This document shows, piece by piece, positions 8,506 to 49,072 of a stretch of DNA of 64,000 nucleotides. Source of the DNA: Candidatus Aegiribacteria sp. Its GTDB lineage: Bacteria > Fermentibacterota > Fermentibacteria > Fermentibacterales > JCC-6. The notes below the pieces were generated by a model. The model was given only the letters and a program-made list of their open reading frames with translations, made no database searches and had not been told where the DNA came from. Every line of letters begins with the position of its first letter. Positions within the stretch are counted from its first letter, which is position 1. The DNA is taken from NCBI GenBank assembly GCA_046498225.1, contig JAWOBF010000061.1:3709-67708 (forward strand). Reading direction: 5' to 3'. The position numbers and the translations under genes are program-made.

Positions 8506-9188
8506 TCCAGGTCGTTCATCAGTGACCTGGCGTAATCACGGGAGATGAATGAGAAGCCGGTGTCGGTATAGACCGACTGCAGGACCGACATCGCCCGGCC
8601 GAACCTGCCCTGGCCATGCAGGCTCAGCGCCAGCGCCGCCCGGGCCATGCCCTCCCGGGGAAAGTTCGAGGTGAGGAACATTGCCGCCTCTTCCGCTTCC
8701 CGGAACATTCCCGCCCCGACCAGCGCCAGGGTCAGGTCCAGGGCGGAATAGTACCTCTGACGCGTCGAGACGGCCCTGTCCATGGAAAGCAGGAACATTT
8801 CGGCGGCCCGAAGGGGCTCCCCCCTGAACTGAAGGGCCATCCCCTCGGCCCTGCTCCTGAGCCAGGGGTTTCCCGTCTGCCGGTCAAGGGCGGCGCAGGA
8901 GTATTCCGCCAGCCCGCAGTTCCAGGCCAGCCTGGCGAACCAGAAATCGAGATATCCCTCCTCCAGAGGCAGGCCATCCAGCCTCAGCATCAGGTCGAGA
9001 GCATGTATGCTGTTGCCGGAATAGAGGGACTCCTCTATGAAACGGCTGATTATACGCACTTCGCCGGCCAGGTCCTTCTCCTCGCTGTACTTCCTGCCGG
9101 CTTCCACCAGGTCGCCGGAGACCTCCAGGCTGAAACCCTGGGATAGTATCATTGCCAGCAGCAGCAGGACATTAAGGTTCATCATCAC
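8502..9188 (-). CDS. secreted helical-repeat (TPR-like) protein
   Basis: Signal peptide MMMNLNVLLLLAMILSQGFS, followed by repeated Ala/Leu/Tyr-rich helical pairs. Start/stop overlaps occur at both ends. Confidence 0.55.
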   Translation of the reverse strand: MMMNLNVLLLLAMILSQGFSLEVSGDLVEAGRKYSEEKDLAGEVRIISRFIEESLYSGNSIHALDLMLRLDGLPLEEGYLDFWFARLAWNCGLAEYSCAALDRQTGNPWLRSRAEGMALQFRGEPLRAAEMFLLSMDRAVSTRQRYYSALDLTLALVGAGMFREAEEAAMFLTSNFPREGMARAALALSLHGQGRFGRAMSVLQSVYTDTGFSFISRDYARSLMNDLE

Positions 9189-9826
9189 TCCATAATGCGC
9201 GACAGTATCCGTCTCAGCAGCCTGAGGTAGCTGAGAAGGCCTGTGAGCGCCGAAAGAAGGGCGAATATCATCAGGGGTGTATAGAGGGAGGAGAATATCT
9301 GCTTATGGGGGAACGCCAGCCTTGCGGTGGCGGTTATGAGAAGAAGGTAGCTGAAGAGCACGGCCAGCCGCTCGCCTGTGGTTATGGTCACAACGGGCAC
9401 GTGTACGCTCCAGGATATGATGGAGAGCGACAGCAGCAGCAGCAGGTGGTAACCGGTAAGCAGACCCGCCACGAAGGTATCCAGCCCGTTCAGGTTGAAC
9501 GCGACGATTATCAGGGCCACGGACAGGAACAGCTTGTCGGCGGTGAAATCCATCACCTTCCCGGGGTAGGTGTTCCTCTTCATCCTTCTGGCGGTCCAGC
9601 CGTCGAGGTAATCCGATACCGCGCCCGCCAGTATGAGCCAGAAAACCGGTACCGGGCTGCTGTACCTGTAGGCCAGGAGGACGAGGACACCGGCTCCGGC
9701 GAACCGGAACCAGGTTATCAGGGCCGGTACGATCGGAAAACTCCCGGCTATCTGATGAGCCCGGTTCTGCACCTCAGCCCTTATCTGATGCAGGATATTC
9801 CTGCCGTTTGCCGGGTTCGATGTCAC
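9185..9826 (-). CDS. CDP-alcohol phosphatidyltransferase family protein
   Basis: Signature DYLDGWTARRMKRNTYPGKVMDFTADK matches D-x2-DG-x2-AR-x8-G-x3-D-x3-D. Multi-TM. The GTG at 9826 forms a GTGA overlap with the upstream stop; the track start at 9901 would give a 79-nt overlap. Confidence 0.8.
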   Translation of the reverse strand: MTSNPANGRNILHQIRAEVQNRAHQIAGSFPIVPALITWFRFAGAGVLVLLAYRYSSPVPVFWLILAGAVSDYLDGWTARRMKRNTYPGKVMDFTADKLFLSVALIIVAFNLNGLDTFVAGLLTGYHLLLLLSLSIISWSVHVPVVTITTGERLAVLFSYLLLITATARLAFPHKQIFSSLYTPLMIFALLSALTGLLSYLRLLRRILSRIME

Positions 9827-10398
9827 GGGGAGACGCCCTCCCTTATTCCGGCTGCGAAAAGGCTGTCCAGGGCGGACATGCCTATCCAGTCCCTCTCCCA
9901 TTCCATGGAGACGGGAAAGAACACACCGGCAAGCATTTCCAGGTCGGACCTCCCCGCCAGGATATTCGGATGGAACAACCCGCCGTGGGACGTTCGCATC
10001 CAGCCCATGGCGATTACTGCCGCCAGCGTGTTGCCGTAGTCGTCGTCCGTGAGGTCTGAGGGAATTTCTGGACCGGTGCTGAGAGCGTCGTAGAACTGGA
10101 AGCGGCCGTACCAGGAAAGCGCTATTCCCAGGTCACGTCTGGTAACCGGAACAACCGAACCCCTTCCGTCCATCCAGGCCTCCGCCTCTCGTATCCTGCC
10201 CCGGTTGACCAGCAGGCGCAGAAGAGGAACCAGGGCCGTCCTGTTACCGTTCTTGAGCTGGCTCTTGATGGCTCGTTCGTTGAGGGAGGGCGGGGCAAGG
10301 GAATCAGCCTCAAGTCTGGACCCGGAGGCTTCAAGCCAGAAATCATCGGCGACCGTGAGCGTCTGGGCCGATAGCGTTACAGTGAATAACAGGGTCAC
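9823..10398 (-). CDS. hypothetical exported protein
   Basis: The track ORF 9823..10593 runs through a tRNA gene. The coding part must begin after the tRNA, most plausibly at GTG 10398 (M-TLLFTVTLSAQ..., a hydrophobic leader). A GTGA coupling to the next gene supports it being real. Confidence 0.5.
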   Translation of the reverse strand: MTLLFTVTLSAQTLTVADDFWLEASGSRLEADSLAPPSLNERAIKSQLKNGNRTALVPLLRLLVNRGRIREAEAWMDGRGSVVPVTRRDLGIALSWYGRFQFYDALSTGPEIPSDLTDDDYGNTLAAVIAMGWMRTSHGGLFHPNILAGRSDLEMLAGVFFPVSMEWERDWIGMSALDSLFAAGIREGVSP

Positions 10399-10511: not shown

Positions 10512-11339
10512 TCATGGTCCCTCCGTCAAGTTCCTTCCGGGCAGGCTTTCCAGGACGCCTGAATATACTGCTCTGGCCTCGCCCTGCAGCCACCAGCCTT
10601 TTTCGTCGTTTCCCGCCGTAAGGGTCAGCCCGCTCCTGACCCCTATATCCACCGGCTGGGCGCAGCCGAGGAGTTCAACGGCGCAGATCGCGCATGCAAC
10701 GGCCCCCGTGCCGCAGGCCAGCGTCTCACCCTCCACCCCTCTTTCCCAGGTCCTCATGGAAATGGACCCATTGTCCGTCCAGAGATAATTAACGTTGGCG
10801 CCTGCCTGTCCGAACATTGAATGGCTCCTCAGCCTTCTTGCGGTCTCATCGAAGGGAGGTATGTCGGGTCCGCCGGTGACCGCCACCGCGTGGGGAACTC
10901 CGGTGTTGACGAAGGACAGGCTGAGTTCATGGGAACCCACCCGGGTCTTTCTGTCAAGAAAATGTATCGCGGGGTCCGTCATCCATATCCTGGCGCTGTC
11001 CGGGCCGGTCACCCTGGCCCTGTGAACTCCGGCCGCGCTTCTGAAACTGAAGTCCTCCCCCGGTTCCACGAGCCCCCTCCGCGCCGCGAAAGCCGCTATG
11101 CAGCGGCCTCCGTTGCCGCACATCTCCGCCTCTCCGCCGTCGCTGTTGTAATACCTCATCCTGAAAGGGAACTCAGGGTCGCTTCCCATTTCCAGCACGC
11201 CGTCAGCGCCTACCGAGAGTCCCCTTCGGCAGAGAGCCCTCACAAGCTCAGCGGTAACCGGAGTGTCAGTGGTTCCGTCCAGGTTGTCTATGAGTATGAA
11301 GTCGTTGCCGGCGCCGCTCATTTTAACGAATTTCAGCAT
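10512..11339 (-). CDS. dapF: diaminopimelate epimerase
   Basis: MLKFVKMSGAGNDFILIDN is the DapF N-terminus. Both catalytic Cys regions are present (EMCGNGGRC, ACGTGAVA). The 102 upstream codons of the track ORF are Arg/Gly/Trp-rich and overlap the preceding gene, so I rejected them. Confidence 0.92.
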   Translation of the reverse strand: MLKFVKMSGAGNDFILIDNLDGTTDTPVTAELVRALCRRGLSVGADGVLEMGSDPEFPFRMRYYNSDGGEAEMCGNGGRCIAAFAARRGLVEPGEDFSFRSAAGVHRARVTGPDSARIWMTDPAIHFLDRKTRVGSHELSLSFVNTGVPHAVAVTGGPDIPPFDETARRLRSHSMFGQAGANVNYLWTDNGSISMRTWERGVEGETLACGTGAVACAICAVELLGCAQPVDIGVRSGLTLTAGNDEKGWWLQGEARAVYSGVLESLPGRNLTEGP

Positions 11340-13566
11340 TATTCCCTGTTTCCTCCCCCACGCCGCCCATCTCCCTTTCCAGCAGTTCCAGCTCCAGGCG
11401 GGCTTCCCGGTTCGCCGGGTCCTCCTCAAGCACCCGGAAGTATTCCTCCCTGGCTTCCTCCGGCCGGCCCTCGGCCGCGAAAAGCCTCGCCAGCAGAAGC
11501 CTGAGGGCGGGCCTTTCGCCGGTCCACCAGGTGAAGCTCTCGATATCCTCCGCCAGGTGGTCCAGCCGGTAGCCGCCCTGAATATACAGCTGGATGAGGT
11601 CATTGAGCATACTTTCGGTAACCTCGGCGGGACCGCCGCCCGCAAGGCCCAGAAGGAGCGCGCCCGAAAGCATGTCAGGGTCGTTGATCTCTATGCCCCT
11701 GTCCGCCAGGTAGCCTGACCATCCCCTCATGTCCTCCAGGATGGCCTTTGCCTGGTCGTAGCCGCTGTAGCAGTGGGCGTACCGTTCCACGAACAGGAAC
11801 CGCCTGGGAAGGTCAGCAGCCTCCCGGTACCCCCGGCCGTAGACGCGGAGGGAGGGTCCCTGGTGGAGGAGAACGAGTGAATCCAGCGTTTCGGGCCTGT
11901 AATGAAGCTGCCGGGCTACGGCCTGTTCCGGTTCTTCCCGCAGCCCCGCGAGGTAGAGCAGGCCGCTGAAGCTACTGTCCAGCAGGAAATCCGCCTGATA
12001 CACCAGCAGCCGGCAGTCCCGGTCCCTCATGAAGGCCACCAGGCTGTCCTCCGGCATGAACATGGTCTCGGCGAACCTGATTATTGTCTCCCTGTTGTAT
12101 TCGCTCTCGAAGAAGGTATGGGTTACTACCGGACGCTCCGCGTAGGCCGAAATCAGGCCGGATATGTGCCAGTAGCTCAGAACGGCCCGATCGCTTTCCG
12201 TTTCCCTGTCCAGCCAGTCCAGGAAGGAATCAAGCTCACGGTCGCCCAGCATTGAGGATGAATCCTCGAACCGCAGTCCGACCCTGTCGATTGCTCCCGC
12301 TATGACCCCGGGAAACAGGGATTGAAGGATGATGGCCAGGGCCACGGGGACTATCAGCCATCTCCTTCTGAAGGTTGCGGCGATAACCGGAACGAGAGCC
12401 ACGGCCAGGAACACCATCAGCCTGTCGAAGAAGAGGTAGCCGGCCAGCGAGAGGGGAAGGAACCAGAAAATGAGCCTGTTCCCCCTCTCCCTGAAGAACG
12501 CCCTTGCTCCCGGCAGGGCCGCCAGGAGGGGCACTCCGAAGAGCAGAAGGAACTGGGCCGGCGAGGGGCTGGTGTAACCGGGCACCCAGAACAGCCTGGC
12601 GTCCTCCGACAGAAGCAGGGGGTTCTCCGGATGGCTGAAGAGGAACCTCAGCTTTGCCGCTATCACCGATGACACGTGACCGGTGGCGGCCTGACCGATG
12701 AAAGAGGATGCCGCGGCCAGGACAGTGGCGCACAGCGGGTACCAGACCGGTCTGAACCGGGGCAGGAGCAGAAACACCGCCATGACCGTGGCCGGGCTTA
12801 TCAGCGCCCCGTCATGCCTCATGTGGGGCAGAAGGACGGAAGCGGCTATCTGGGCGGAGGCCAGGGATATCCTGGCGGACAGGGGTACGTCTCCCCTTCG
12901 CCAGTTCCTCCAAAACAGATAAAGAAGCAGGAAGAACGAGATGAAGGCTGTGACCTTCCACGCGGCAAGTGACATGAACAGGACAACTCCCGCGGATACG
13001 CCGAATCTCATGGCGGCCCGTTCATCCTCTTCGGCAAGTGTCCTCTCGGTAAGCCATCCCAGAGCCACGAGCATGGGCAGGGCGACGGTCTCCCTGTAGA
13101 GGGACCCGCCCCTTGCCCTGAGGATGGCCGGAAGAAGAAAGGCGTAAAGACCGGAAGCCAGAAGGGAGGTCCATTTTTCGAATCCTGCCCCGCGCATCCA
13201 CAGGTAGAGCATGGGGATAACCAGCAGAGGGAAGAAAAGCGCGAAAGCCCTGATGAAACCATCGAAGTCCCCCCCCGCTATCCTGTGGATACCTCCGGCC
13301 ACGTACTCCTCGAATATGGAGTTGTGAAAGGTATTCATGCCCCGCGGATGCATAACCAGGGTATCGACTTCAGGAATATGGCCGGTCATGGAGAACATTT
13401 TCGCGTAACGGTAGGCCTGGGTGGTTTCGGCCTGCATCCTTTTCGGAGGGGGAAGCACGGAGGAGGCGACCAGGCTCCGGAAGAGGAATCCCGCCGCAAC
13501 CGCCGCGGCGAGAAGCAGGGCTGTTGTCAGAACACCGGTTCTACGGAACATCGCTGGGCTTTCCAT
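11323..13566 (-). CDS. large polytopic membrane protein, candidate GT-C glycosyltransferase (STT3/PglB-like) with a C-terminal TPR-like region
   Basis: About 12 hydrophobic segments are followed by a soluble domain. SYWHISGLISAYAERPVVTHTF aligns by eye to SWWDYGYQI...TLVDNNT of STT3/AglB, but with the Asp replaced. The C-terminal RLLLARLFAAEGRPEEAREEYFRVLEEDPANREARLELELL is TPR-like. Confidence 0.55.
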   Translation of the reverse strand: MESPAMFRRTGVLTTALLLAAAVAAGFLFRSLVASSVLPPPKRMQAETTQAYRYAKMFSMTGHIPEVDTLVMHPRGMNTFHNSIFEEYVAGGIHRIAGGDFDGFIRAFALFFPLLVIPMLYLWMRGAGFEKWTSLLASGLYAFLLPAILRARGGSLYRETVALPMLVALGWLTERTLAEEDERAAMRFGVSAGVVLFMSLAAWKVTAFISFFLLLYLFWRNWRRGDVPLSARISLASAQIAASVLLPHMRHDGALISPATVMAVFLLLPRFRPVWYPLCATVLAAASSFIGQAATGHVSSVIAAKLRFLFSHPENPLLLSEDARLFWVPGYTSPSPAQFLLLFGVPLLAALPGARAFFRERGNRLIFWFLPLSLAGYLFFDRLMVFLAVALVPVIAATFRRRWLIVPVALAIILQSLFPGVIAGAIDRVGLRFEDSSSMLGDRELDSFLDWLDRETESDRAVLSYWHISGLISAYAERPVVTHTFFESEYNRETIIRFAETMFMPEDSLVAFMRDRDCRLLVYQADFLLDSSFSGLLYLAGLREEPEQAVARQLHYRPETLDSLVLLHQGPSLRVYGRGYREAADLPRRFLFVERYAHCYSGYDQAKAILEDMRGWSGYLADRGIEINDPDMLSGALLLGLAGGGPAEVTESMLNDLIQLYIQGGYRLDHLAEDIESFTWWTGERPALRLLLARLFAAEGRPEEAREEYFRVLEEDPANREARLELELLEREMGGVGEETGNNAEIR

Positions 13567-13593
13567 GGCTTATGAAAGGACGGCGGCCGCGGA

Positions 13594-14175
13594 TCAGGAC
13601 AGGAGCCCTGAGTGCTGCTTCGCTATAATGACCGACATTATCTTGAGGGTTTCCACCGGACCGCTTCCGCCGATGGCCACGGATTCAATTGAGGGCCATC
13701 CGTAGCGGTTCAGCAGCTGCTCCATCTCCTCCACCGATGCTATGGAGGGAAGGTCCCTCTTGTTGAACTGCAGTACCGAGGGCACGTCGGATAGTTTCAG
13801 GCCGTAGGAATCCAGGTTGCTCTCCAGGTCCTCCATACTGTCGACGTTGGCGTCCATTCTCTCGGTCTGGCTGTCCGCGACGAAGATTATTCCGTCCACG
13901 CCATCAAGGATGACCTTTCTGCTCAGAGAGTAGTAGGCCTGTCCGGGAACCGAATAGAGGTGGAGCCTTACCCTGTCGTTCCCGATGGACGCGAAGTTGA
14001 CGGGAAGGAAGTCGAAGAATACGGTCCGCTCTCCCCTGGTGCACAGCGTAACCAGTCTTCCCCTGTGTTCCGGGGCTATCAGATCCCGTATCCTCCTGAG
14101 ATTCGTGGTCTTTCCCGAAAGACCGGGACCGTAGTAGACTATCTTGTAGGCAACTTCATTTACTGATCTGTGCAT
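13594..14175 (-). CDS. MglA-family Ras-like small GTPase (paralog 1)
   Basis: Motifs KIVYYGPGLSGKTTNL (P-loop), RTVFFDFLP, LYSVPGQ and FNKRD are the MglA hallmarks. Confidence 0.85.
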   Translation of the reverse strand: MHRSVNEVAYKIVYYGPGLSGKTTNLRRIRDLIAPEHRGRLVTLCTRGERTVFFDFLPVNFASIGNDRVRLHLYSVPGQAYYSLSRKVILDGVDGIIFVADSQTERMDANVDSMEDLESNLDSYGLKLSDVPSVLQFNKRDLPSIASVEEMEQLLNRYGWPSIESVAIGGSGPVETLKIMSVIIAKQHSGLLS

Positions 14176-14204: not shown

Positions 14205-15554
14205 TCAGAGTATATAATTACCATCTTCTCTTCGATCAGCAAGGTCAAGAAGGATACTCTTCGCCGAGGTCCCGGATATGCTCACCGGACCCCTGACCAG
14301 ATCGGGGGCTCCGAACAGCTGCTGGTCCAGCAGGTAGCTCAGTACCGGCCTGAGCCTTCTTGCGCCTATGTCGTCGGTCTCCTGGTTGAGATGGCTGGCT
14401 ACCCTGGCCACTTCACGGGAGGCCCCCCGGCTGAGCCTCAGTTTCACACCGTCCGCTTCCAGAAGCGACGTGTACTGCTTCAGAAGTGAATTCTCCGGTT
14501 CGGTGAGGATCCTTAAAAGGTCTTCCTCCGAAAGGGGATCCAGCTCCACCCTCATGGGAAACCTGCCCTGCAGCTCCGGAATGAGGTCGGAGGGGCTCGA
14601 CCCGTTGAAGGCTCCCGCGGCTATGAACAGGATATGGTCCGTCACCACCGGACCGTACCTTGTCTGAACAGCGCAGCCCTCCACGATGGGAAGCAGGTCC
14701 CTCTGAACGCCGGCCCTGGAAACTTCCGGGCCCTTGCTCTCGCTGATCCCGATTATCTTGTCTATCTCGTCGATGAAGATGATACCCTCCTCCTGGGCCA
14801 GCGTCAGCCCCCTGGAAATGTGGTCGCTGCCCTCGAGGAGCCTGCCCATCTCCTCTTCTCGAAGCCTCTCCCTGGCCTCGGAGACCGGAAGCTCGGTCCG
14901 CTTCCTCCTGCCGCCCATCATCTTCTGCATGAGTTTCTTGAGGTTTTCTCCCGCGGCATTGTCGAAACCGGCGCCGGGCATCAGGGGCATTATCTCCATG
15001 TTTGGAAGCTGGTCGGGAAGTATCATCTCCACCCTGGTGTCCTCCAGGGAACCGCTTTCCAGCATTCTCTTCAGTTCCGCGTCGGATATGGTTTCGTAAC
15101 CGGAACTCTTCAGCGCTGCGACGAGTTTTCCCGTCACCGCCTGCTCGACATGCTCCGCCCGGTCCTTTCTTTCTCTCTCCGCTTCAATGTTCACCGCCTG
15201 CCGCACCAGCGACCGCACCATGGATTCCACGTCCCTGCCCACGTATCCGGTTTCGGTGTACTTGGTGGCCTCAACCTTCACGAAGGGGGCGCCGGTGAGA
15301 TTAGCCAGCCTTCTGGCTATCTCCGTCTTCCCTATGCCGGTGGGCCCCATCATTATCAGATTGCTGGGATATATCTCGGGCCTGATATCGTCCGGCGCCA
15401 GCCGACGCCGGTACCTGTTGCGAAGGGCTATGGCTACCGACCGCTTTGCAGCGGCCTGGCCAACCACATGGCGGTCAAGCCACTTCACTGTCTCCGACGG
15501 GGTGTAGTCTCCCTTGTCGTTCATCCGCGCGGGTTCCCTGTTCATATCAGCCAA
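14205..15554 (-). CDS. hslU: ATP-dependent protease ATPase subunit HslU
   Basis: Motifs TPSETVKWLDRHVVGQAAAKRSVAIALRNRYRR, MMGPTGIGKTEIARRLA and GIIFIDEIDKI. Confidence 0.95.
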   Translation of the reverse strand: MADMNREPARMNDKGDYTPSETVKWLDRHVVGQAAAKRSVAIALRNRYRRRLAPDDIRPEIYPSNLIMMGPTGIGKTEIARRLANLTGAPFVKVEATKYTETGYVGRDVESMVRSLVRQAVNIEAERERKDRAEHVEQAVTGKLVAALKSSGYETISDAELKRMLESGSLEDTRVEMILPDQLPNMEIMPLMPGAGFDNAAGENLKKLMQKMMGGRRKRTELPVSEARERLREEEMGRLLEGSDHISRGLTLAQEEGIIFIDEIDKIIGISESKGPEVSRAGVQRDLLPIVEGCAVQTRYGPVVTDHILFIAAGAFNGSSPSDLIPELQGRFPMRVELDPLSEEDLLRILTEPENSLLKQYTSLLEADGVKLRLSRGASREVARVASHLNQETDDIGARRLRPVLSYLLDQQLFGAPDLVRGPVSISGTSAKSILLDLADRREDGNYIL

Positions 15555-16086
15555 GCTCCTCCAGCTGTATGTCGCCTCCGGTGTAGATGCATATTCCGGA
15601 GGCTATCCTGATGCTCTCGAACGCGATCCTGGCCGGTCCCATCCTGGTGTGCCCGTCCAGGGCCCGCGCAGCGGCGATGGCGTATGGATGACCTGAACCT
15701 ACAGCCACTATTCCATCTTCCGCCTCGACTATCTCGCCGGAGCCGCCTATGAGCAGGGCATGGTCGCGGTCCACCGCGGCCAGCAGTGCTTCCAGCTCCC
15801 TCAGGTACTTGTCGGCCCGCCATTCGCGGGCAAGGTCAACCGCCGCCCTGGGAAGGTTGCCCCTGGCTGTCTCCAGTTTCTCCTCCAGCCTCTCCACCAG
15901 GGCGAAGGCGTCGGCGCCGGTTCCGGAGAATCCCACCAGGACGGTGTCGGAATAGAGCCTTCTTATTTTCCTGGCGGTGCTCTTCAGGACGGTATCCCCC
16001 AGGGTGACCTGGCCGTCCGCCGCCATGGCGGCCTTTCCATCCCTGACTATGCCCACTACGGTGGTCGACCGCAGTTCTGCCGTCAT
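15547..16086 (-). CDS. hslV: ATP-dependent protease subunit HslV
   Basis: STTVVGIVRDGKAAMAADGQVTLGDTVLKSTARKIRRLY. The ATG at 16086 forms an ATGA overlap with the upstream stop. I rejected the upstream 79 codons of the track ORF. Confidence 0.93.
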   Translation of the reverse strand: MTAELRSTTVVGIVRDGKAAMAADGQVTLGDTVLKSTARKIRRLYSDTVLVGFSGTGADAFALVERLEEKLETARGNLPRAAVDLAREWRADKYLRELEALLAAVDRDHALLIGGSGEIVEAEDGIVAVGSGHPYAIAAARALDGHTRMGPARIAFESIRIASGICIYTGGDIQLEELG

Positions 16087-19000
16087 TGGTCGCCCTCCAG
16101 CAGGTTGACCCAGGAATAGTCGCCCATACCCCTGCCGGGGTCGGGTACACCCGCGGCGTAGGCCTCCGGGTCCTCCAGGACCCGAGCCAGTGCGGAGGCC
16201 GACATGACTTCGCTCCGGTAGAGAGCGGCGTACATCATGCCGGGCCTTCCGCCCTTCGCCGCCATCCAGGCCAGGGCCTCCGGCGATACCCTGTTGCTCT
16301 CCGTGCGGAACCATCTTGTCCACGATACGGTCTCCTCGACAGGATCGTTCAGTATCCTCAGGGCCAGGTTTTCCACCACGCTGGCCTCCTGCGGGTCTTC
16401 CATGCTTCGGGAAAGAACGATACCCGAAGCGGCGGCCGATATCAGATGGCTCCGGGAGGAGAGCCTCAACATCTCTTCCATGATCCTGCCCGCTGTGGCC
16501 TGTTCATTCAGGTCCAGCCCGGAGACCGAGGATGGCTCCATGGATTCGAAGAGTATGGAAAGGCCCGTGTCCCGAATATTGATCCTGTATCCCAGCGGAG
16601 AGCTGTTCAGTATGGCGGCAAGGGAGGAATCCGCCATGGCCGCCAGGCCGGCGTAGGCCGGGTCCGCGCCGGGGTCCATCTCCTCCACTATCCTCCAGGC
16701 GCCTATGTAGTCGGAGAACAGGAGAGCGACCTCCACCCGCAGCCAGGCGAAGGCGGGGGAACCGTCGTCCAGGCTGTCGAAGAGCTGCCTGTACTCCAGC
16801 TCCTGCCGGTAGCCCAGGGTATTATCCGTGCCGGTCGCCAGGCTGGAGAGGTTCAGCGCCAGTCCCGCCAGTTCCTGGCTGTCCAGTCTCCTGGCGTTGT
16901 CCAGTGTCCGGTCGGCGATGGCCTGCAGTGTATCCGAGGCGGCAGCGGGACCGTGCATCCCGTCCACCAGTCTGGCGACTATCATGGCCCTGCGGGGAAG
17001 GACTTCGGCCCAGGCGTCGGGAAGGGTGGTGAAAAGCTCCTCCGACCTGTCGAGTACCATCTGGACGCTGTCCGGCCGGCCTCTGTCGATGTAGTGGTAG
17101 GCCAGTCTGTGATAGGCGGAAACGTAGTTCTTCAGCAGCTGCACCGCCTGGTCGCACTTGAATACGGATGGGTCCTCCACCCCGGTGAACCGGTAGTTTT
17201 CCATCAGCTCCCATCCCCTGGAGCCGTTGACGGCGTCCACCACCGGCCTGTCGGTCACTCGGAAAGCGATTCCCTCCATCATGTGGTAGGGTTCGAGGTA
17301 CTGTCTGCTCTCCGTCGCCACGGTTCCGGCGAAGTATATCTCCCTGCCGTGGATCGGCCTGTTCTTTATCATGTTCAGGAGCACCAGGTCCTGCATGCTC
17401 AGCACTCCCTGGCTGGACAGACCTTCGATTGGAATGGCCACGGCCATGGAGCCGTGGGTTACGGCCCACGGCCAGGGCTGGTCGAAGGTGGTCCTGAGTA
17501 TCTCGCCGTCCACCGGCGAATACTCGGGCATTCCGTACCTCTCCACGTGGAAGTGATGGGGGCCCCAGATATACACAGGCCGAAGCCGGTGTACAAGTCC
17601 GTGGTCGTCGAAATCCAGGAGCAGAGAATCCCTGTCCACCAGCTGCTGCACGTACCAGTTGGTGTTCATAAGGCTGAGGTTGCTGACAATCACGTCCCTG
17701 CGGACCCCCAGCACACCCTGGGCGAACCACAGGGGGAAGGTGTCGTTGTCGCCGTTGGTTATCAGAACGGCGTTCTCCGGGACGCTCTCCAGCAGATTTA
17801 TGCCGTAGTCGTGGGCGAAGTAGGAATTCGACCGGTCGCACCTGTGATGGTTCGCGGTGAACATCAGAAGAGGAATGGCAAGAGTGGCCCACGCCAGCCT
17901 GGACTTCTCGGACAGGAAGTCCCTGAAGACGGATACCAGGCCTATTCCGGAGAATATGGCGAACAGGGCGAAGGAGGCTCCGAAGAAGTAGTCCCTCTCC
18001 CTCACCTCCCCGGCCGGGGTTCCCTCCAGGCCTGTCTTGAAATTCAGTATGAAGAATATGAACAGTATGGATGACATCAGGAACAGAAAACCGAGGTATA
18101 GAAGCAGTTTCGGCCTCCTCATTCCCAGCACCACCAGTCCGTATATCGCCCCGAACAGGAGAATTATGCGCATCAGCATGGCCGCCGCCGGCCCGCCGGT
18201 GTCGCCCAGCAGCCGGTCCCATCCGCTGTCCACCCTTCCGGGCTGCCATGAGAGGTACTTCAGGTAGAGCCTGAGCTGGTGGTGGAAGGGCCCCTTCCGG
18301 TCCAGAATGGACGTCCTTCCGTACTGGTCCCTGGTGAACGCCTTCTCGAAGTTCTCCCATCTGCTTGAGTCGGTCTCGTTCACCTCCGGGTCCTGAACCG
18401 CCCGAATGGGCATGTACAGGTGAATGCTGAATGCCAGCACAACGAGGCCGAGTATGGTCAGTATGAACCAGGAGCGCTTCCAGATGTCGGTCTTCTTCCT
18501 GAAGGCGTAAATAATGTACATCAGGAGTATGGGGGGGCCGGTGACCAGCGGTACGCTGCCGTGGTTGGCAACCGCGAGTATTATCAGGTAGGAAATCAGA
18601 AGAAGGTACCTGGCCTCCCCCCAGCCGCCGTGGTCCTTCCACCCCTTCCTGTGCTTCCTCTCCGCGTACCTCTCTATCCAGCAGTCGAAGGACCACATTA
18701 TTATGAAAGTCAGCAGGAGGGCTGTGGCGTAGGTCTCCGTGGCGTTGCTGTTGCGCCATATTGAGTAGCTGAAGGTCGCTGTCAGTCCCGACAGCACCGA
18801 CATCGGCCTGTACCAGGCGGAAGTGAAGCCCATCCTCCTTCCCCACCGCTGCACGAGACGGACCAGGAGGCCGATGGTGGCGGCCCCGGCAAGGGCGCAC
18901 ATCAGGTTGACCCTGCTGGCCACTCCCGGCAGGAAGGAGAACACGATGGTGCTGAAGCGGCCGAGAAGAACGAACAGCGGGACGCCGGGCGGGTGCGGGA

Positions 19001-19160
19001 CCCCCGCGGTCCAGGATGCGGTTATGTACTCACCGCTGTCCCAGAAGCTGACGCTGGGCGCCAGTGTCAGAACGTAAGTGAGGAGCGCTGCGAGGGCCAC
19101 TGCGACCGCTATGGCCCTGTCGGTTCGAACACTTCTTGATTCAAGCTTCTTGTCAGTCAC
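16083..19160 (-). CDS. DUF2723 (TMEM260-like) large polytopic membrane protein, putative GT-C glycosyltransferase, with a long C-terminal soluble region
   Basis: The N-terminus LTLAPSVSFWDSGEYITASWTAGVPHPPGVPLFVLLGR is the DUF2723 signature. Many TM segments occupy the first ~480 aa, followed by ~540 aa of soluble sequence. GTG start. Confidence 0.8.
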   Translation of the reverse strand: MTDKKLESRSVRTDRAIAVAVALAALLTYVLTLAPSVSFWDSGEYITASWTAGVPHPPGVPLFVLLGRFSTIVFSFLPGVASRVNLMCALAGAATIGLLVRLVQRWGRRMGFTSAWYRPMSVLSGLTATFSYSIWRNSNATETYATALLLTFIIMWSFDCWIERYAERKHRKGWKDHGGWGEARYLLLISYLIILAVANHGSVPLVTGPPILLMYIIYAFRKKTDIWKRSWFILTILGLVVLAFSIHLYMPIRAVQDPEVNETDSSRWENFEKAFTRDQYGRTSILDRKGPFHHQLRLYLKYLSWQPGRVDSGWDRLLGDTGGPAAAMLMRIILLFGAIYGLVVLGMRRPKLLLYLGFLFLMSSILFIFFILNFKTGLEGTPAGEVRERDYFFGASFALFAIFSGIGLVSVFRDFLSEKSRLAWATLAIPLLMFTANHHRCDRSNSYFAHDYGINLLESVPENAVLITNGDNDTFPLWFAQGVLGVRRDVIVSNLSLMNTNWYVQQLVDRDSLLLDFDDHGLVHRLRPVYIWGPHHFHVERYGMPEYSPVDGEILRTTFDQPWPWAVTHGSMAVAIPIEGLSSQGVLSMQDLVLLNMIKNRPIHGREIYFAGTVATESRQYLEPYHMMEGIAFRVTDRPVVDAVNGSRGWELMENYRFTGVEDPSVFKCDQAVQLLKNYVSAYHRLAYHYIDRGRPDSVQMVLDRSEELFTTLPDAWAEVLPRRAMIVARLVDGMHGPAAASDTLQAIADRTLDNARRLDSQELAGLALNLSSLATGTDNTLGYRQELEYRQLFDSLDDGSPAFAWLRVEVALLFSDYIGAWRIVEEMDPGADPAYAGLAAMADSSLAAILNSSPLGYRINIRDTGLSILFESMEPSSVSGLDLNEQATAGRIMEEMLRLSSRSHLISAAASGIVLSRSMEDPQEASVVENLALRILNDPVEETVSWTRWFRTESNRVSPEALAWMAAKGGRPGMMYAALYRSEVMSASALARVLEDPEAYAAGVPDPGRGMGDYSWVNLLEGDQ

Positions 19161-23875: not shown

Positions 23876-24484
23876 TCAGCCTCGTTTCTCGTTCAGTGCA
23901 AGAGAAAACTGCCTGTGCAGACGTCTCATGACTATTCTGCTGGCTTTCCTGAGCGTCTCGAAGACTCCGGTGCCGTCAATCGCCACTGATTCGATGCACG
24001 GTACCCGCTCCAGCCCGAGCTTCTGTCTTATGGTATCCGTGGGCAGGATGTCGGGAAGGTCTCTCTTGTTTGCCTGAAGAACCAGGCTCAGGCCCTTGCG
24101 CTTCGTGTCCCTGAGGTTCTCCTTCAGGTCCCGCAGACTGGCGATGTTGGCTTCCATCCTGGCCCTCTGGGAATCGGCCACGAAGATGATACCGTCAACA
24201 CCCTGCAGTATCAGCTGCCTGCTGTCTGTGTACATGGCCTGTCCGGGTACGCTGTAGAGATGCAGCCTTACCTTGAAACCATATATGGTGCCTGTATTTA
24301 TGGGCAGGAAATCGAAGAAAAGGGTTCGCTCGTTGCCGGTGGCCAGGGATATGAGCTTGCCCCTGTCACTGGACGGGATCTGACTGTGTATGAACTTGAC
24401 ATTGGTGGTCTTGCCCGAAAGTCCCGGACCGGCATAGACAAGCTTGCAATCAATCTCCCTGGAACTGTAGCTAACTGTGGCCAT
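23876..24484 (-). CDS. mglA: MglA-family Ras-like small GTPase (paralog 2, closest to Myxococcus MglA)
   Basis: MATVSYSSREIDCKLVYAGPGLSGKTTN...RTLFFDFLP...LYSVPGQ...GIIFVADSQ...ANKRD is near-colinear with the MglA sequence as I recall it ([28 protein letters not shown]...). Confidence 0.9.
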   Translation of the reverse strand: MATVSYSSREIDCKLVYAGPGLSGKTTNVKFIHSQIPSSDRGKLISLATGNERTLFFDFLPINTGTIYGFKVRLHLYSVPGQAMYTDSRQLILQGVDGIIFVADSQRARMEANIASLRDLKENLRDTKRKGLSLVLQANKRDLPDILPTDTIRQKLGLERVPCIESVAIDGTGVFETLRKASRIVMRRLHRQFSLALNEKRG

Positions 24485-46985: not shown

Positions 46986-48399
46986 AGGATATCCAGCCGG
47001 TTCCCGTGAAGACCAGTTCCCTTCCCGGGACGTAGTTCGTTCCAGCCTTTCCCGGAAGCGGCTCGCCGTTGACCAGGCCCTTCCCCCACGCAGTTACGTA
47101 AGCGCCACAGGCTCCCGCTGGGCCGGTGAGAGACCGCCTTCCTTCGAATTTCCAGGTTACCGAGGGGGTGTCAAGCTCACGGACGAACCCGGTGGGAGGG
47201 TCCACCCATGAAGGGGAAAGTGAGCGGCGCTCCCCCTCTTCCGCATGGTCCCGCGTGAACTCCTCCGCCATTCGAACAGCCCGCTTCCAGTCTTCCCTCA
47301 GTCTCTTTACCGACCCCGTATCCTCCGCGTACATCCTGGCCGCCAGGGACAGTCCCTCCCTCAGCCGGTCATTCCTCAGCACGGCGTTCACCGCGGCGGG
47401 AACCCCCTGGACCATATTGTCAGGCGGGACCCTTATCACCGCATCGGATGGCATGTTAAGGAACGATCCGGAGGCAGATACAACAGGCGGGACTCCGGCT
47501 CTCATGGCCTCCAGAAGGCTTCCCGAGGTTTCCCCGCAGGTGGGATGACGCAGGTCGAGGACCAGGTCCAGCGTCCTTATCCAGCTCTGGTAGAGCGCTT
47601 CTTCCAGCCTGCCTGTCCGCACGGTCCACGGAGGCAGTTCATCGGGGTACCCGCCTCCTATGAGCAGAAGTCCCGCATCCGGCTCCCGTTCCCTTACCTT
47701 CTCCATGGCCCTCATCACCTGCTCCAGGTTCCTTCCCGGATGGTAGCTGCCCACCATTCCCAGGCAGACTCGAAAGGGCTTTTCCATCTTTCGAAGCTCG
47801 GGAAGAGGGCTCAGCGGGTGCCCCAGGGTCATCACGGCTCCCGGGGGGTAGGAGTCACTGATGCCGGCGGCGGCGTAATCGTTGAGACACATTGCGCTGG
47901 TGGAGCTGTTCACCGACCTTCCCACAAGGGGGTATTCCTTCAGGAGAGCGTCGTATTCCTCGCTGGAGGAGGCGGTTCCGGAAAGCTTCTTTTCAACGGC
48001 CTCCGCGGCGGGCCCGTAGCAGAACCGGAGCTCCCTCCTGTAATCGTCCATCCTTCCCCTTCTCAGGTATCCGTCCCTGAGCATGTGATGAAGCACCGTT
48101 TCATGGAACAGGGCTGTGCCGCCCATGGAGTAGAGAGCCTGCGCGATGGGAAAACAGTGGGGTGAGTTGCCCAGCTGGAATACTCTCACAGCCGGGACTT
48201 CGCTGTGGTCCAGCCTGTCAAGTGGAATATGGCGTGCAATTCCGGGGACTGAGTTCGGTTCGCCTCCCGGAGGACTCGCCACCACCCATCGGATACGTTC
48301 CGAAGTGTGCTTCAGCACCCTCTCCGCGTATGTGGCCAGACCGGTCCGCATGGGAGGAAGTGGCGTTACGAGAAGAACTTCAGTCCTTTCCTCCGGCAT
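46969..48399 (-). CDS. glycosyltransferase (GT4/GT1-like) with a ~100-aa C-terminal extension
   Basis: EVLLVTPLPPMRTGLATYAERVL and GETSGSLLEAMRAGVPPVVSASG. Confidence 0.7.
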   Translation of the reverse strand: MPEERTEVLLVTPLPPMRTGLATYAERVLKHTSERIRWVVASPPGGEPNSVPGIARHIPLDRLDHSEVPAVRVFQLGNSPHCFPIAQALYSMGGTALFHETVLHHMLRDGYLRRGRMDDYRRELRFCYGPAAEAVEKKLSGTASSSEEYDALLKEYPLVGRSVNSSTSAMCLNDYAAAGISDSYPPGAVMTLGHPLSPLPELRKMEKPFRVCLGMVGSYHPGRNLEQVMRAMEKVREREPDAGLLLIGGGYPDELPPWTVRTGRLEEALYQSWIRTLDLVLDLRHPTCGETSGSLLEAMRAGVPPVVSASGSFLNMPSDAVIRVPPDNMVQGVPAAVNAVLRNDRLREGLSLAARMYAEDTGSVKRLREDWKRAVRMAEEFTRDHAEEGERRSLSPSWVDPPTGFVRELDTPSVTWKFEGRRSLTGPAGACGAYVTAWGKGLVNGEPLPGKAGTNYVPGRELVFTGTGWISYVLWE

Positions 48400-49072
48400 C
48401 TCCCCTCCATACCCTCAGTCTCAGCCTCAGCAGCTGGACGAACATCTCGATTATGGGTCCAAGCCGCACCCATGCGAAGATACCGCTCCTGAAACTCTCG
48501 CAGGATACGCTGCCCGCCCTTCTTGGATAATGGGACACCGGCAGCTGCAGGACCCGCATTCCCAGCTTCCTGGGAAACAGCAGCAGCTCCAGGTCGGCCA
48601 CGCTGGAGGTGGACCTTATCTCGAACCTGTTGAAGATATCCCTTCTAAAGAGCTTGAAGGAGGAGTCGACGTCACGGAAGCCTCCCCAGAACAGAAGATA
48701 TGTAAGGGTATTGTAGGCGAAGGAATACATCAGCCTCATCAGGGGGTCTTTCCTGTTCCTTCTGAAGCCGGAAACAACGTCCGCTCCCTCGCGAATGAGC
48801 CAGAGTGACTCCAGCTCCCTCAGGTCGAACTGACCGTCGCAGTCCGTATAGAACACCCAGGGCATGGACGCGGTCCTGATACCCGTCCAGACCGCCCCGC
48901 CTATTCCGATGTTCACCGGGTGGCTGACGGCCCTGACGTTCCGGTGTTCCCCCGCCAGCTTCCCCGCTATTCGGGCGGTACCGTCGGAGGACCCGTCATC
49001 AACAACTATGATCTCCCCGGGAATGTCCAGGTGGTCCAGAACCTCCATGATCTTCCCGACCATGTACTCCAC
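48380..49072 (-). CDS. glycosyltransferase family 2, polyprenyl-phosphate sugar synthase (DPM1/ArnC-like); true 5' end probably upstream at a non-canonical start
   Basis: IIVVDDGSSDGT, NIGIGGA and YTDCDGQFD are present. The conserved N-terminal strand LSVVFPAFNEEENV is encoded in frame upstream of the first GTG (49072), with no ATG, GTG or TTG before the in-frame TGA. Confidence 0.75.
   Translation of the reverse strand: MEYMVGKIMEVLDHLDIPGEIIVVDDGSSDGTARIAGKLAGEHRNVRAVSHPVNIGIGGAVWTGIRTASMPWVFYTDCDGQFDLRELESLWLIREGADVVSGFRRNRKDPLMRLMYSFAYNTLTYLLFWGGFRDVDSSFKLFRRDIFNRFEIRSTSSVADLELLLFPRKLGMRVLQLPVSHYPRRAGSVSCESFRSGIFAWVRLGPIIEMFVQLLRLRLRVWRGDAGGKD

Follow-up and report, generated by a model that had tools for sequence, protein, structure and literature searches.

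The GT-C glycosyltransferases DPY19 and STT3 have corresponding motifs in their second external loop (EL2), which reads Rx6LRE in the former and Rx6DNE in the latter (PMC6801728). The DPY19 enzymes are C-mannosyltransferases acting on the Trp of WxxW/C sequons. In the DPY19 of Caenorhabditis elegans (CeDPY19; 7ZLG/7ZLH/7ZLI; PF10034; CAZy GT98), Trp262 forms a hydrogen bond to the phosphate of dolichyl phosphate, the essential Arg471 is linked to the donor phosphate by a salt bridge, Leu472 contributes to the lining of the groove for dolichol, and Tyr395 and Tyr578 are the peptide sensors (PMC10154233). Among the small GTPases of the MglA family, those of Group 1 are recognized by a P-loop, an intrinsic Arg finger beside the G2 Thr, a G3 motif TVPGQ without Asp, and a G4 motif NKxD (PMC4316618, Wuichet and Sogaard-Andersen). 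A protein of each kind is encoded in a stretch of 64,000 nucleotides (nt) from an uncultured Fermentibacteria genome, Candidatus Aegiribacteria sp. (contig JAWOBF010000061.1, positions 3,709 to 67,708), hereafter referred to as the window. Both open reading frames (ORFs) were found where an earlier, purely sequence-based reading of the window (the original prediction) had placed them, that is, a gene for an MglA-type GTPase of 193 amino acids (aa) at 13594-14175 (mglA1), and one for a 747-aa membrane protein at 11323-13566 (the GT-C gene). These two genes, the other genes of the same array and the features within them, whose coordinates are given below, are all located on the minus strand of the window.

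The reading that we favour, with fair confidence, is that the 747-aa protein is a GT-C enzyme of the DPY19/STT3 class and that its gene shares with mglA1 an operon only, most likely without any direct physical or regulatory coupling of the two products. Judging from its predicted structure, the protein belongs almost certainly to the GT-C enzymes. The AlphaFold model, built on 34 homologs, is a confident GT-C fold (predicted local distance difference test, pLDDT, 90.8; predicted template modelling score, pTM, 0.85) comprising 13 transmembrane (TM) helices, with extended loops behind TM1 and behind TM9, then an alpha/beta domain (residues 429-592) and finally a helical repeat tail (residues 593-747). 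Model, Foldseek and profiles delimit the TM core with its 13 helices (residues 1-428; 12283-13566), including the periplasmic loops EL1 (38-100) and EL5 (290-335); it is followed by the alpha/beta domain, a periplasmic "dome" (11791-12282) matched by Foldseek to the C-terminal domain of AglB (3vu0), and by the tail (11326-11790), in which the expected likeness to tetratricopeptide repeats (TPR) was borne out by the model, by relatives of the protein and by Pfam TPR_14 (E 2.6e-5 at residues 686-726, its sole Pfam match above cut-off). The positive-inside rule and the 13-TM topology fit STT3 and DPY19, with the N-terminus inside and both dome and TPR in the periplasm.

The best Foldseek matches in the PDB are the eukaryotic STT3 proteins, with E from 4e-14 (8b6l_I) to 1e-12 and TM-scores of 0.53-0.66 (0.61/0.64 for 6s7t_A), followed by C. 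elegans DPY19 (E 1e-11, TM-score 0.58-0.66, root mean square deviation ~6.3) and by AglB and PglB (E 1e-11 to 5e-7), all with a probability of 1.00. Far weaker matches were obtained with ArnT (E 1e-4, TM-score ~0.3), PMT (E ~1e-2, TM-score below 0.3), and the ALG enzymes, and no Emb/Aft entry occurs among the 50 matches listed. Lack of a GT-C fold, which would have refuted the original prediction, is thus contradicted by these matches. A GT-C core followed by non-cytoplasmic TPR is also found in TMTC1-4 and in the bacterial PMT_2+TPR enzymes, and in TMTC the repeats serve protein O-mannosylation (PMC11292533); the cores of these proteins are, however, PMT-like with 11 TM helices, whereas that of the 747-aa protein is of the STT3/DPY19 type with 13.

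The comparison with the individual residues of CeDPY19 was based on profile alignments, the numbering of which was verified, since Trp262, Phe264, Tyr395, Phe401, and Arg471 fall where the structure paper puts them (PMC10154233). In EL2, the sequence RARGGSLYRE (R150-x6-Y157-R158-E159; 13090-13119) is aligned to R211...L218-R219-E220, so that R158-E159 corresponds to Arg219-Glu220, and R150 and E159 are invariant in the core alignment. The two residues contacting the donor phosphate have counterparts in W203 of EL3 (Trp262; 12958-12960), invariant across the family, and in R382 of EL6 (Arg471; 12421-12423), invariant in alignment A1; L383 is aligned to Leu472. In the dome, the loop RPVVTHTFFE (12106-12135) corresponds to the peptide-sensor loop RPIVNHPHYE of DPY19, with F486-E487 at the place of Tyr578-Glu579 and R492 at that of Arg584, the end of the loop, while F326 is aligned to Tyr395. 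Thus, the 747-aa protein and DPY19 have in common the 13-TM GT-C fold with its luminal or periplasmic dome, an EL2 motif Rx6[L/Y]RE, the Trp and Arg residues for the donor phosphate, a sensor loop RPxVxHxx[F/Y]E, and the lack of a DxD metal site. The differences consist in the replacement of both sensor Tyr residues by Phe, in a 9-residue KPxDP insert in EL5, in the additional periplasmic TPR tail, and in the bacterial host, in which the donor would be an undecaprenyl-phosphate sugar.

STT3, AglB, and PglB belong to the same fold class, but their characteristic motifs are altered in the 747-aa protein. The metal motif DNE of STT3 EL2 is aligned to YRE, in which only the Glu is kept, leaving no DxD/DNE metal site, and no DK/MI motif is evident. 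The resemblance of a block in the soluble domain to WWDYG, with the Asp replaced, had been noticed in the original prediction and is confirmed by the profile alignment, which puts YWHIS (12160-12174) on WWDYG column for column, with His for Asp and Ser for Gly, and the following RP on the STT3 "DRP". Since the WWDYG Asp, which reads the +2 Ser/Thr, is a His here, the acceptor is probably not the asparagine of an N-X-S/T sequon, and a role as N-X-S/T oligosaccharyltransferase appears unlikely. The YWHIS block is restricted to Fermentibacteria and a single outgroup; in the wider family, its place is taken by SPxILAYAxRPxVLHxKFE, and not even the W-H is kept. The designation of the protein as STT3-like holds, therefore, for the fold class, while as to the subtype both motifs and family bring it closer to DPY19 than to STT3.

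The distribution of conserved positions points to the periplasmic side. In the alignment of 34 sequences, the majority frequency averages 0.79 over the periplasmic loops, 52% of whose positions are at least 90% conserved, whereas over the cytoplasmic loops, 28 residues in total, it averages 0.39 and no position is conserved to at least 90%. The core alignment of 14 sequences (A3) contains 21 invariant columns, all of which, except for the start Met and W203, are located in periplasmic loops or in the dome. An acidic residue of EL1, E47 (13426-13428), about 10 residues after TM1, is invariant or nearly so in alignments A1, A2, A3, and A5 and is a candidate for the catalytic base, lying at the position of DPY19 Glu71 and STT3 D47/D49. 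Hidden Markov model alignments, including one with an N-terminal sub-profile (A5), did not reach the E47 region or align it to STT3 or DPY19, and the first Glu of the DPY19 ExE motif is absent, the sequence reading QAE; the equivalence to the catalytic acid would thus follow from position, which counts against the favoured mechanism. According to this mechanism, the sugar would be taken from a polyprenyl-monophosphate donor, the phosphate of which would be held by R382 and W203, with E47 acting as a base in a metal-free reaction as in DPY19; it would then be passed to an exported, probably unfolded protein held by the dome loop and the TPR. A GT2 enzyme of 230 aa (48380-49072, minus strand), best resembling the dolichyl-phosphate hexose transferase, PpgS, and ArnC types, could be the DPM1/ArnC-like donor synthase, although all its scores are below the equivalog cut-offs; polyprenyl-phosphate sugars for the several GT-C enzymes of the window might be supplied by it. 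The 747-aa protein is probably catalytically active; that its acceptor is a protein is only slightly favoured.

The family searches proposed in the original prediction gave no Pfam STT3 match for the 747-aa protein; both Pfam Dpy19 (PF10034; E 0.04, 12.5 bits vs. a gathering cut-off of 27.2) and NCBIfam archaeo_STT3 (E 0.05, 11.8 bits vs. a cut-off of 450) remained below threshold. All of its 138 close homologs, which come from Fermentibacteria, Aegiribacteria, and Sabulitectum, are hypothetical proteins as well. With a profile of the GT-C proteins of Fermentibacteria, 906 representatives were retrieved from a library of 1.84 billion, 346 of them at E <=1e-30, and the distant members of the family, 650-970 aa long, match Pfam Dpy19 in all ten cases scanned, seven of them above cut-off (40-98 bits), with canonical C-terminal TPRs in eight of the ten. 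When the core profile without TPR was compared with the PDB, C. thermophilum STT3 (2e-24) and human STT3B (4e-16) were found together with CeDPY19 (1.4e-19), the latter in a single alignment over 449 positions. The 747-aa protein is therefore a member of a large bacterial DPY19-like+TPR family placed between DPY19 and STT3. In another lineage (locus L010, 6001-12178), a DPY19-like/TPR gene is followed by a gene for a 550-aa PpiD/SurA-like rotamase and by one for a PMT_2+TPR GT-C enzyme, a group that resembles an operon for periplasmic protein folding and glycosylation and suggests a protein acceptor for the family.

The analysis of the gene order revealed a compact array. The GTPase gene lies, as had been described, between hslU (14205-15554; Pfam AAA_2/AAA), from which it is separated by 29 nt, and the GT-C gene, and the 27 nt reported between its stop codon and the first ATG of the latter are exact (13567-13593); this spacer would be 42 nt long if the GT-C gene started at Met6, as in the database entry. 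Downstream, dapF (10512-11336; Pfam DAP_epimerase) starts either at 11336, overlapping the GT-C gene by 14 nt, or at 11318, after a gap of 4 nt. Upstream, between xerC and hslV, there is a gene coding for a TMEM260-like (DUF2723) GT-C protein of 1025 aa (16083-19160; Pfam PF11028, E 6e-36), which is kept in the two related loci inspected and represents a second eukaryote-like protein-glycosylating GT-C of the same array. The TMEM260-like and the DPY19-like proteins, both homologs of eukaryotic protein-mannosylating GT-C enzymes, bracket hslVU-mglA1. A scan for promoters and terminators from hslU to dapF gave nothing meaningful, and no promoter-like or terminator-like site is present in the 27-nt spacer. 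A terminator-like hairpin (13489-13513; GC-rich 11-bp stem followed by a T-rich run) is located within the 5' coding end of the GT-C gene, in TM1, and is probably incidental.

The comparison of 61 species-level Fermentibacteria loci retrieved from GTDB genomes disclosed that this organization is conserved in the relatives. An MglA1 ortholog (64-93% identity) lies directly upstream of the GT-C gene in all 61, the linkage of dapF to the GT-C gene is as tight and as universal as that of mglA1, and hslU is found upstream in 58 of them. The median gap is 35 nt between hslU and mglA1 and 11 nt between the GT-C gene and dapF, often with a 4-nt overlap, and in 39 loci the GT-C frame is able to start 17-29 nt before the mglA1 stop. 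In the remaining three genomes, which include a complete chromosome of 2.5 Mb, no hslU was found at E <=1e-30, so that the HslVU protease appears to be lost from this lineage; the order there is xerC, TMEM260-like gene, mglA1, GT-C gene, dapF, with mglA1 flanked by two GT-C genes. Outside Fermentibacteria, no MglA was found within 5-6 kb of any of the five distant family members examined (a 215-aa ORF upstream of the L010 relative was considered and discarded, not being an MglA), and the neighbours of these members are PMT_2/TPR enzymes, a PpiD-like rotamase, and GT4s. The co-occurrence that the original prediction had asked for is thus complete in the 61 Fermentibacteria loci and absent from the five distant members examined outside them.

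Judged from its sequence, the product of mglA1 is an intact cytoplasmic Group-1 MglA GTPase, in accordance with its first assignment to the MglA family. It matches the solved MglA structures 6hjh/5ymx/3t12 (E 5e-57 to 1e-54), is 51% identical to the M. xanthus MglA, and possesses the P-loop GPGLSGKTT, the Arg finger (E49-R50-T51), the G3 motif SVPGQ, and the G4 motif NKRD, that is, all the Group-1 hallmarks with a single change, the Thr of TVPGQ being a Ser. The strings originally quoted for the GTPase and for the membrane protein (KIVYYGPGLSGKTTNL, TVFFDFLP, SVPGQ, NKRD, and SYWHISGLISAYAERPVVTHTF) were all found in the two proteins. With the MglA of M. xanthus and T. thermophilus, MglA1 has in common the intrinsic Arg finger, [T/S]VPGQ, and NKRD; with SofG and the B. 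bacteriovorus MglA, the orphan condition, i.e., the absence of an adjacent mglB (PMC4316618). It differs from SofG in being compact, without the SofG extensions, and from the known Group-1 MglA proteins in being one of three paralogs and in having a GT-C gene as neighbour.

The second paralog, mglA2 (23876-24484, minus strand; 202 aa), is located in the same window about 10 kb from mglA1, and no Roadblock/MglB gene exists anywhere in the window, both as originally noticed. MglA1 and MglA2 are 53% identical, are more closely related to each other than to the third paralog of the genome, and both carry SVPGQ. The idea that each paralog is followed by a large envelope-spanning protein is correct for mglA1 and its polytopic GT-C; mglA2 is followed by a gene for a 522-aa membrane protein with one TM helix and no Pfam family, which is not a polytopic enzyme of glycosylation. 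The third paralog belongs to a canonical polarity module on another contig (C45:5422-8967), in which two MglB genes (139 and 170 aa), MglA3 (199 aa, TIPGQ), and a DUF4388 gene (PATAN-type, 230 aa) are co-directional. These are the only two Roadblock/MglB genes of the genome, which makes MglA1 an orphan, and their products, encoded elsewhere in the genome, would be the candidate GTPase-activating proteins for it. The genome also harbors six PilB/PilT-type ATPases, hence conventional targets exist for the MglA paralogs. A PilT-like T2SSE match on a further contig (C18:7014-8087, plus strand), adjoining two intact PilB-like genes, contains two in-frame TAG codons, which could indicate either a pseudogene or a fault of the assembly.

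The three MglA paralogs are ancestral to Fermentibacteria. Of 41 genomes sampled from the phylum, 40 possess an ortholog of MglA1 (70-93% identity); most of them carry MglA2 on the contig of MglA1, at a distance of 8-10 kb, and about half to two thirds carry MglA3 elsewhere in the genome; the one genome without MglA (G038) also lacks the GT-C gene, hslU, and dapF, which is likely due to an assembly gap and is uninformative. In a search of 5.8 billion proteins, the MglA1 orthogroup (at least 69% identity) is confined to Fermentibacteria, and the next-best matches (53-58% identity) are ordinary recR-mglB-mglA genes of other lineages. As to whether the GTPase might fall in a clade with a different known partner, its nearest outgroup relatives do pair with MglB. 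In the nearest relative outside the group, the order is recR, mglB, mglA, CDP-alcohol phosphatidyltransferase; a gene for the latter enzyme also occurs a few genes downstream of mglA1 (9185-9901) and may have been left there from an earlier arrangement of the genes.

On the whole, it is most likely, from the arrangement of the genes, that mglA1 and the GT-C gene are co-transcribed within a long, tightly packed, phylum-conserved array (xerC, TMEM260-like gene, hslVU, mglA1, GT-C gene, dapF). We favour the shared operon without further coupling because all three junctions (hslU-mglA1, mglA1-GT-C, and GT-C-dapF) are tight over the 61 loci, because no MglA lies near the five distant family members, and because the genome possesses the canonical mglB-mglB-mglA-DUF4388 module together with the six PilB/PilT-type ATPases. 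Several observations weigh against it: the adjacency of mglA1 and the GT-C gene is perfect and outlives the loss of hslVU; their frames can overlap in 39 loci, as is the case in pairs with translational coupling; mglA1 is under very strong constraint, with identities of 70-93% compared with 43-70% for the GT-C gene, which points to an important conserved partner; and the sister paralog mglA2 is likewise coupled to a membrane protein.

The adjacency with its persistence after the loss of hslVU, the overlapping frames, and the coupling of mglA2 to a membrane protein also speak for the alternative closest to the original prediction, in which MglA1 would be a dedicated regulator or spatial organizer of the DPY19-like GT-C, and perhaps of the TMEM260-like one as well: located at a pole or where the cell divides, MglA1-GTP would bring the enzyme there or activate it, acting either on the short basic cytoplasmic loops directly or by way of an adaptor, so that envelope proteins would be glycosylated at defined places. 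To them may be added that, where hslVU is lost, mglA1 stands between two GT-C genes, and that the MglA1 orthogroup and the YWHIS GT-C subclade are both specific to Fermentibacteria (apart from the one outgroup with YWHIS). The active site, the dome, and the TPR, however, are all periplasmic, and a cytoplasmic face so small and so variable is hard to square with so conserved a GTPase; dapF is linked as closely as mglA1, the distant members have no MglA nearby, and the nearest MglA1 outgroups are in ordinary mglB-mglA pairs. The known MglA effectors SgmX, Bd2492, GltJ, and RomRX are cytoplasmic proteins or provided with cytoplasmic domains, whereas the 747-aa GT-C protein has no such domain. The proposed control or targeting of envelope glycosylation by MglA finds, therefore, no support beyond gene order; we regard this alternative as rather unlikely, and a direct MglA1-GT-C coupling as such is to be considered unlikely as well.

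A further alternative retains the absence of any relation to MglA1 and assigns to the 747-aa enzyme, within an envelope-biogenesis array, an acceptor other than protein, for instance a glycan of the cell wall or a lipid-linked one, in analogy with ArnT, Emb/Aft, or O-antigen-type enzymes. The neighbouring genes in the window and in related loci (dapF, CDP-OH_P_transf, and GT9) are envelope genes, both sequon-reading motifs of STT3 are changed, and the core of the dome is also common to bacterial arabinosyltransferases (PMC10154233). Nevertheless, the best structural and profile matches (STT3, DPY19, AglB, and PglB) are all protein-modifying, ArnT is a weak match and Emb/Aft is missing from those listed, the DPY19 peptide-sensor loop is conserved, GT-C TPR fusions mark protein O-mannosyltransferases such as TMTC (PMC11292533), and a family member in another phylum adjoins a PpiD-like chaperone and a PMT_2/TPR enzyme; a non-protein acceptor is thus quite unlikely. 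Finally, TPR is a type of MglA-binding domain in SgmX, and a TPR also serves as MglA binder in Bdellovibrio Bd2492, but such a role was rejected for the 747-aa protein, the topology of which puts the TPR in the periplasm.

The phylum-wide pairing of an orphan MglA with a GT-C gene represents a concrete and cheaply testable hypothesis, even though the evidence favours an operon neighbourhood and the regulatory idea is unfit as an annotation. It is very doubtful that MglA1 is a cytoplasmic organizer which, through the basic loops or an adaptor, positions or gates periplasmic glycosylation by a bacterial DPY19-like enzyme; if this were true, a small GTPase would for the first time be connected with GT-C glycosylation in a prokaryote, and the enzyme might catalyse a modification of the DPY19 type, for which only eukaryotic examples are known at present. 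Under the favoured reading, an enzyme annotated merely as a hypothetical protein can now be assigned to a large bacterial family without prior experiments, which forms a bridge between two enzymes of eukaryotic protein glycosylation, the C-mannosylating DPY19 and the N-glycosylating STT3. The identity of its acceptor would tell whether bacteria carry out DPY19-type protein modification.

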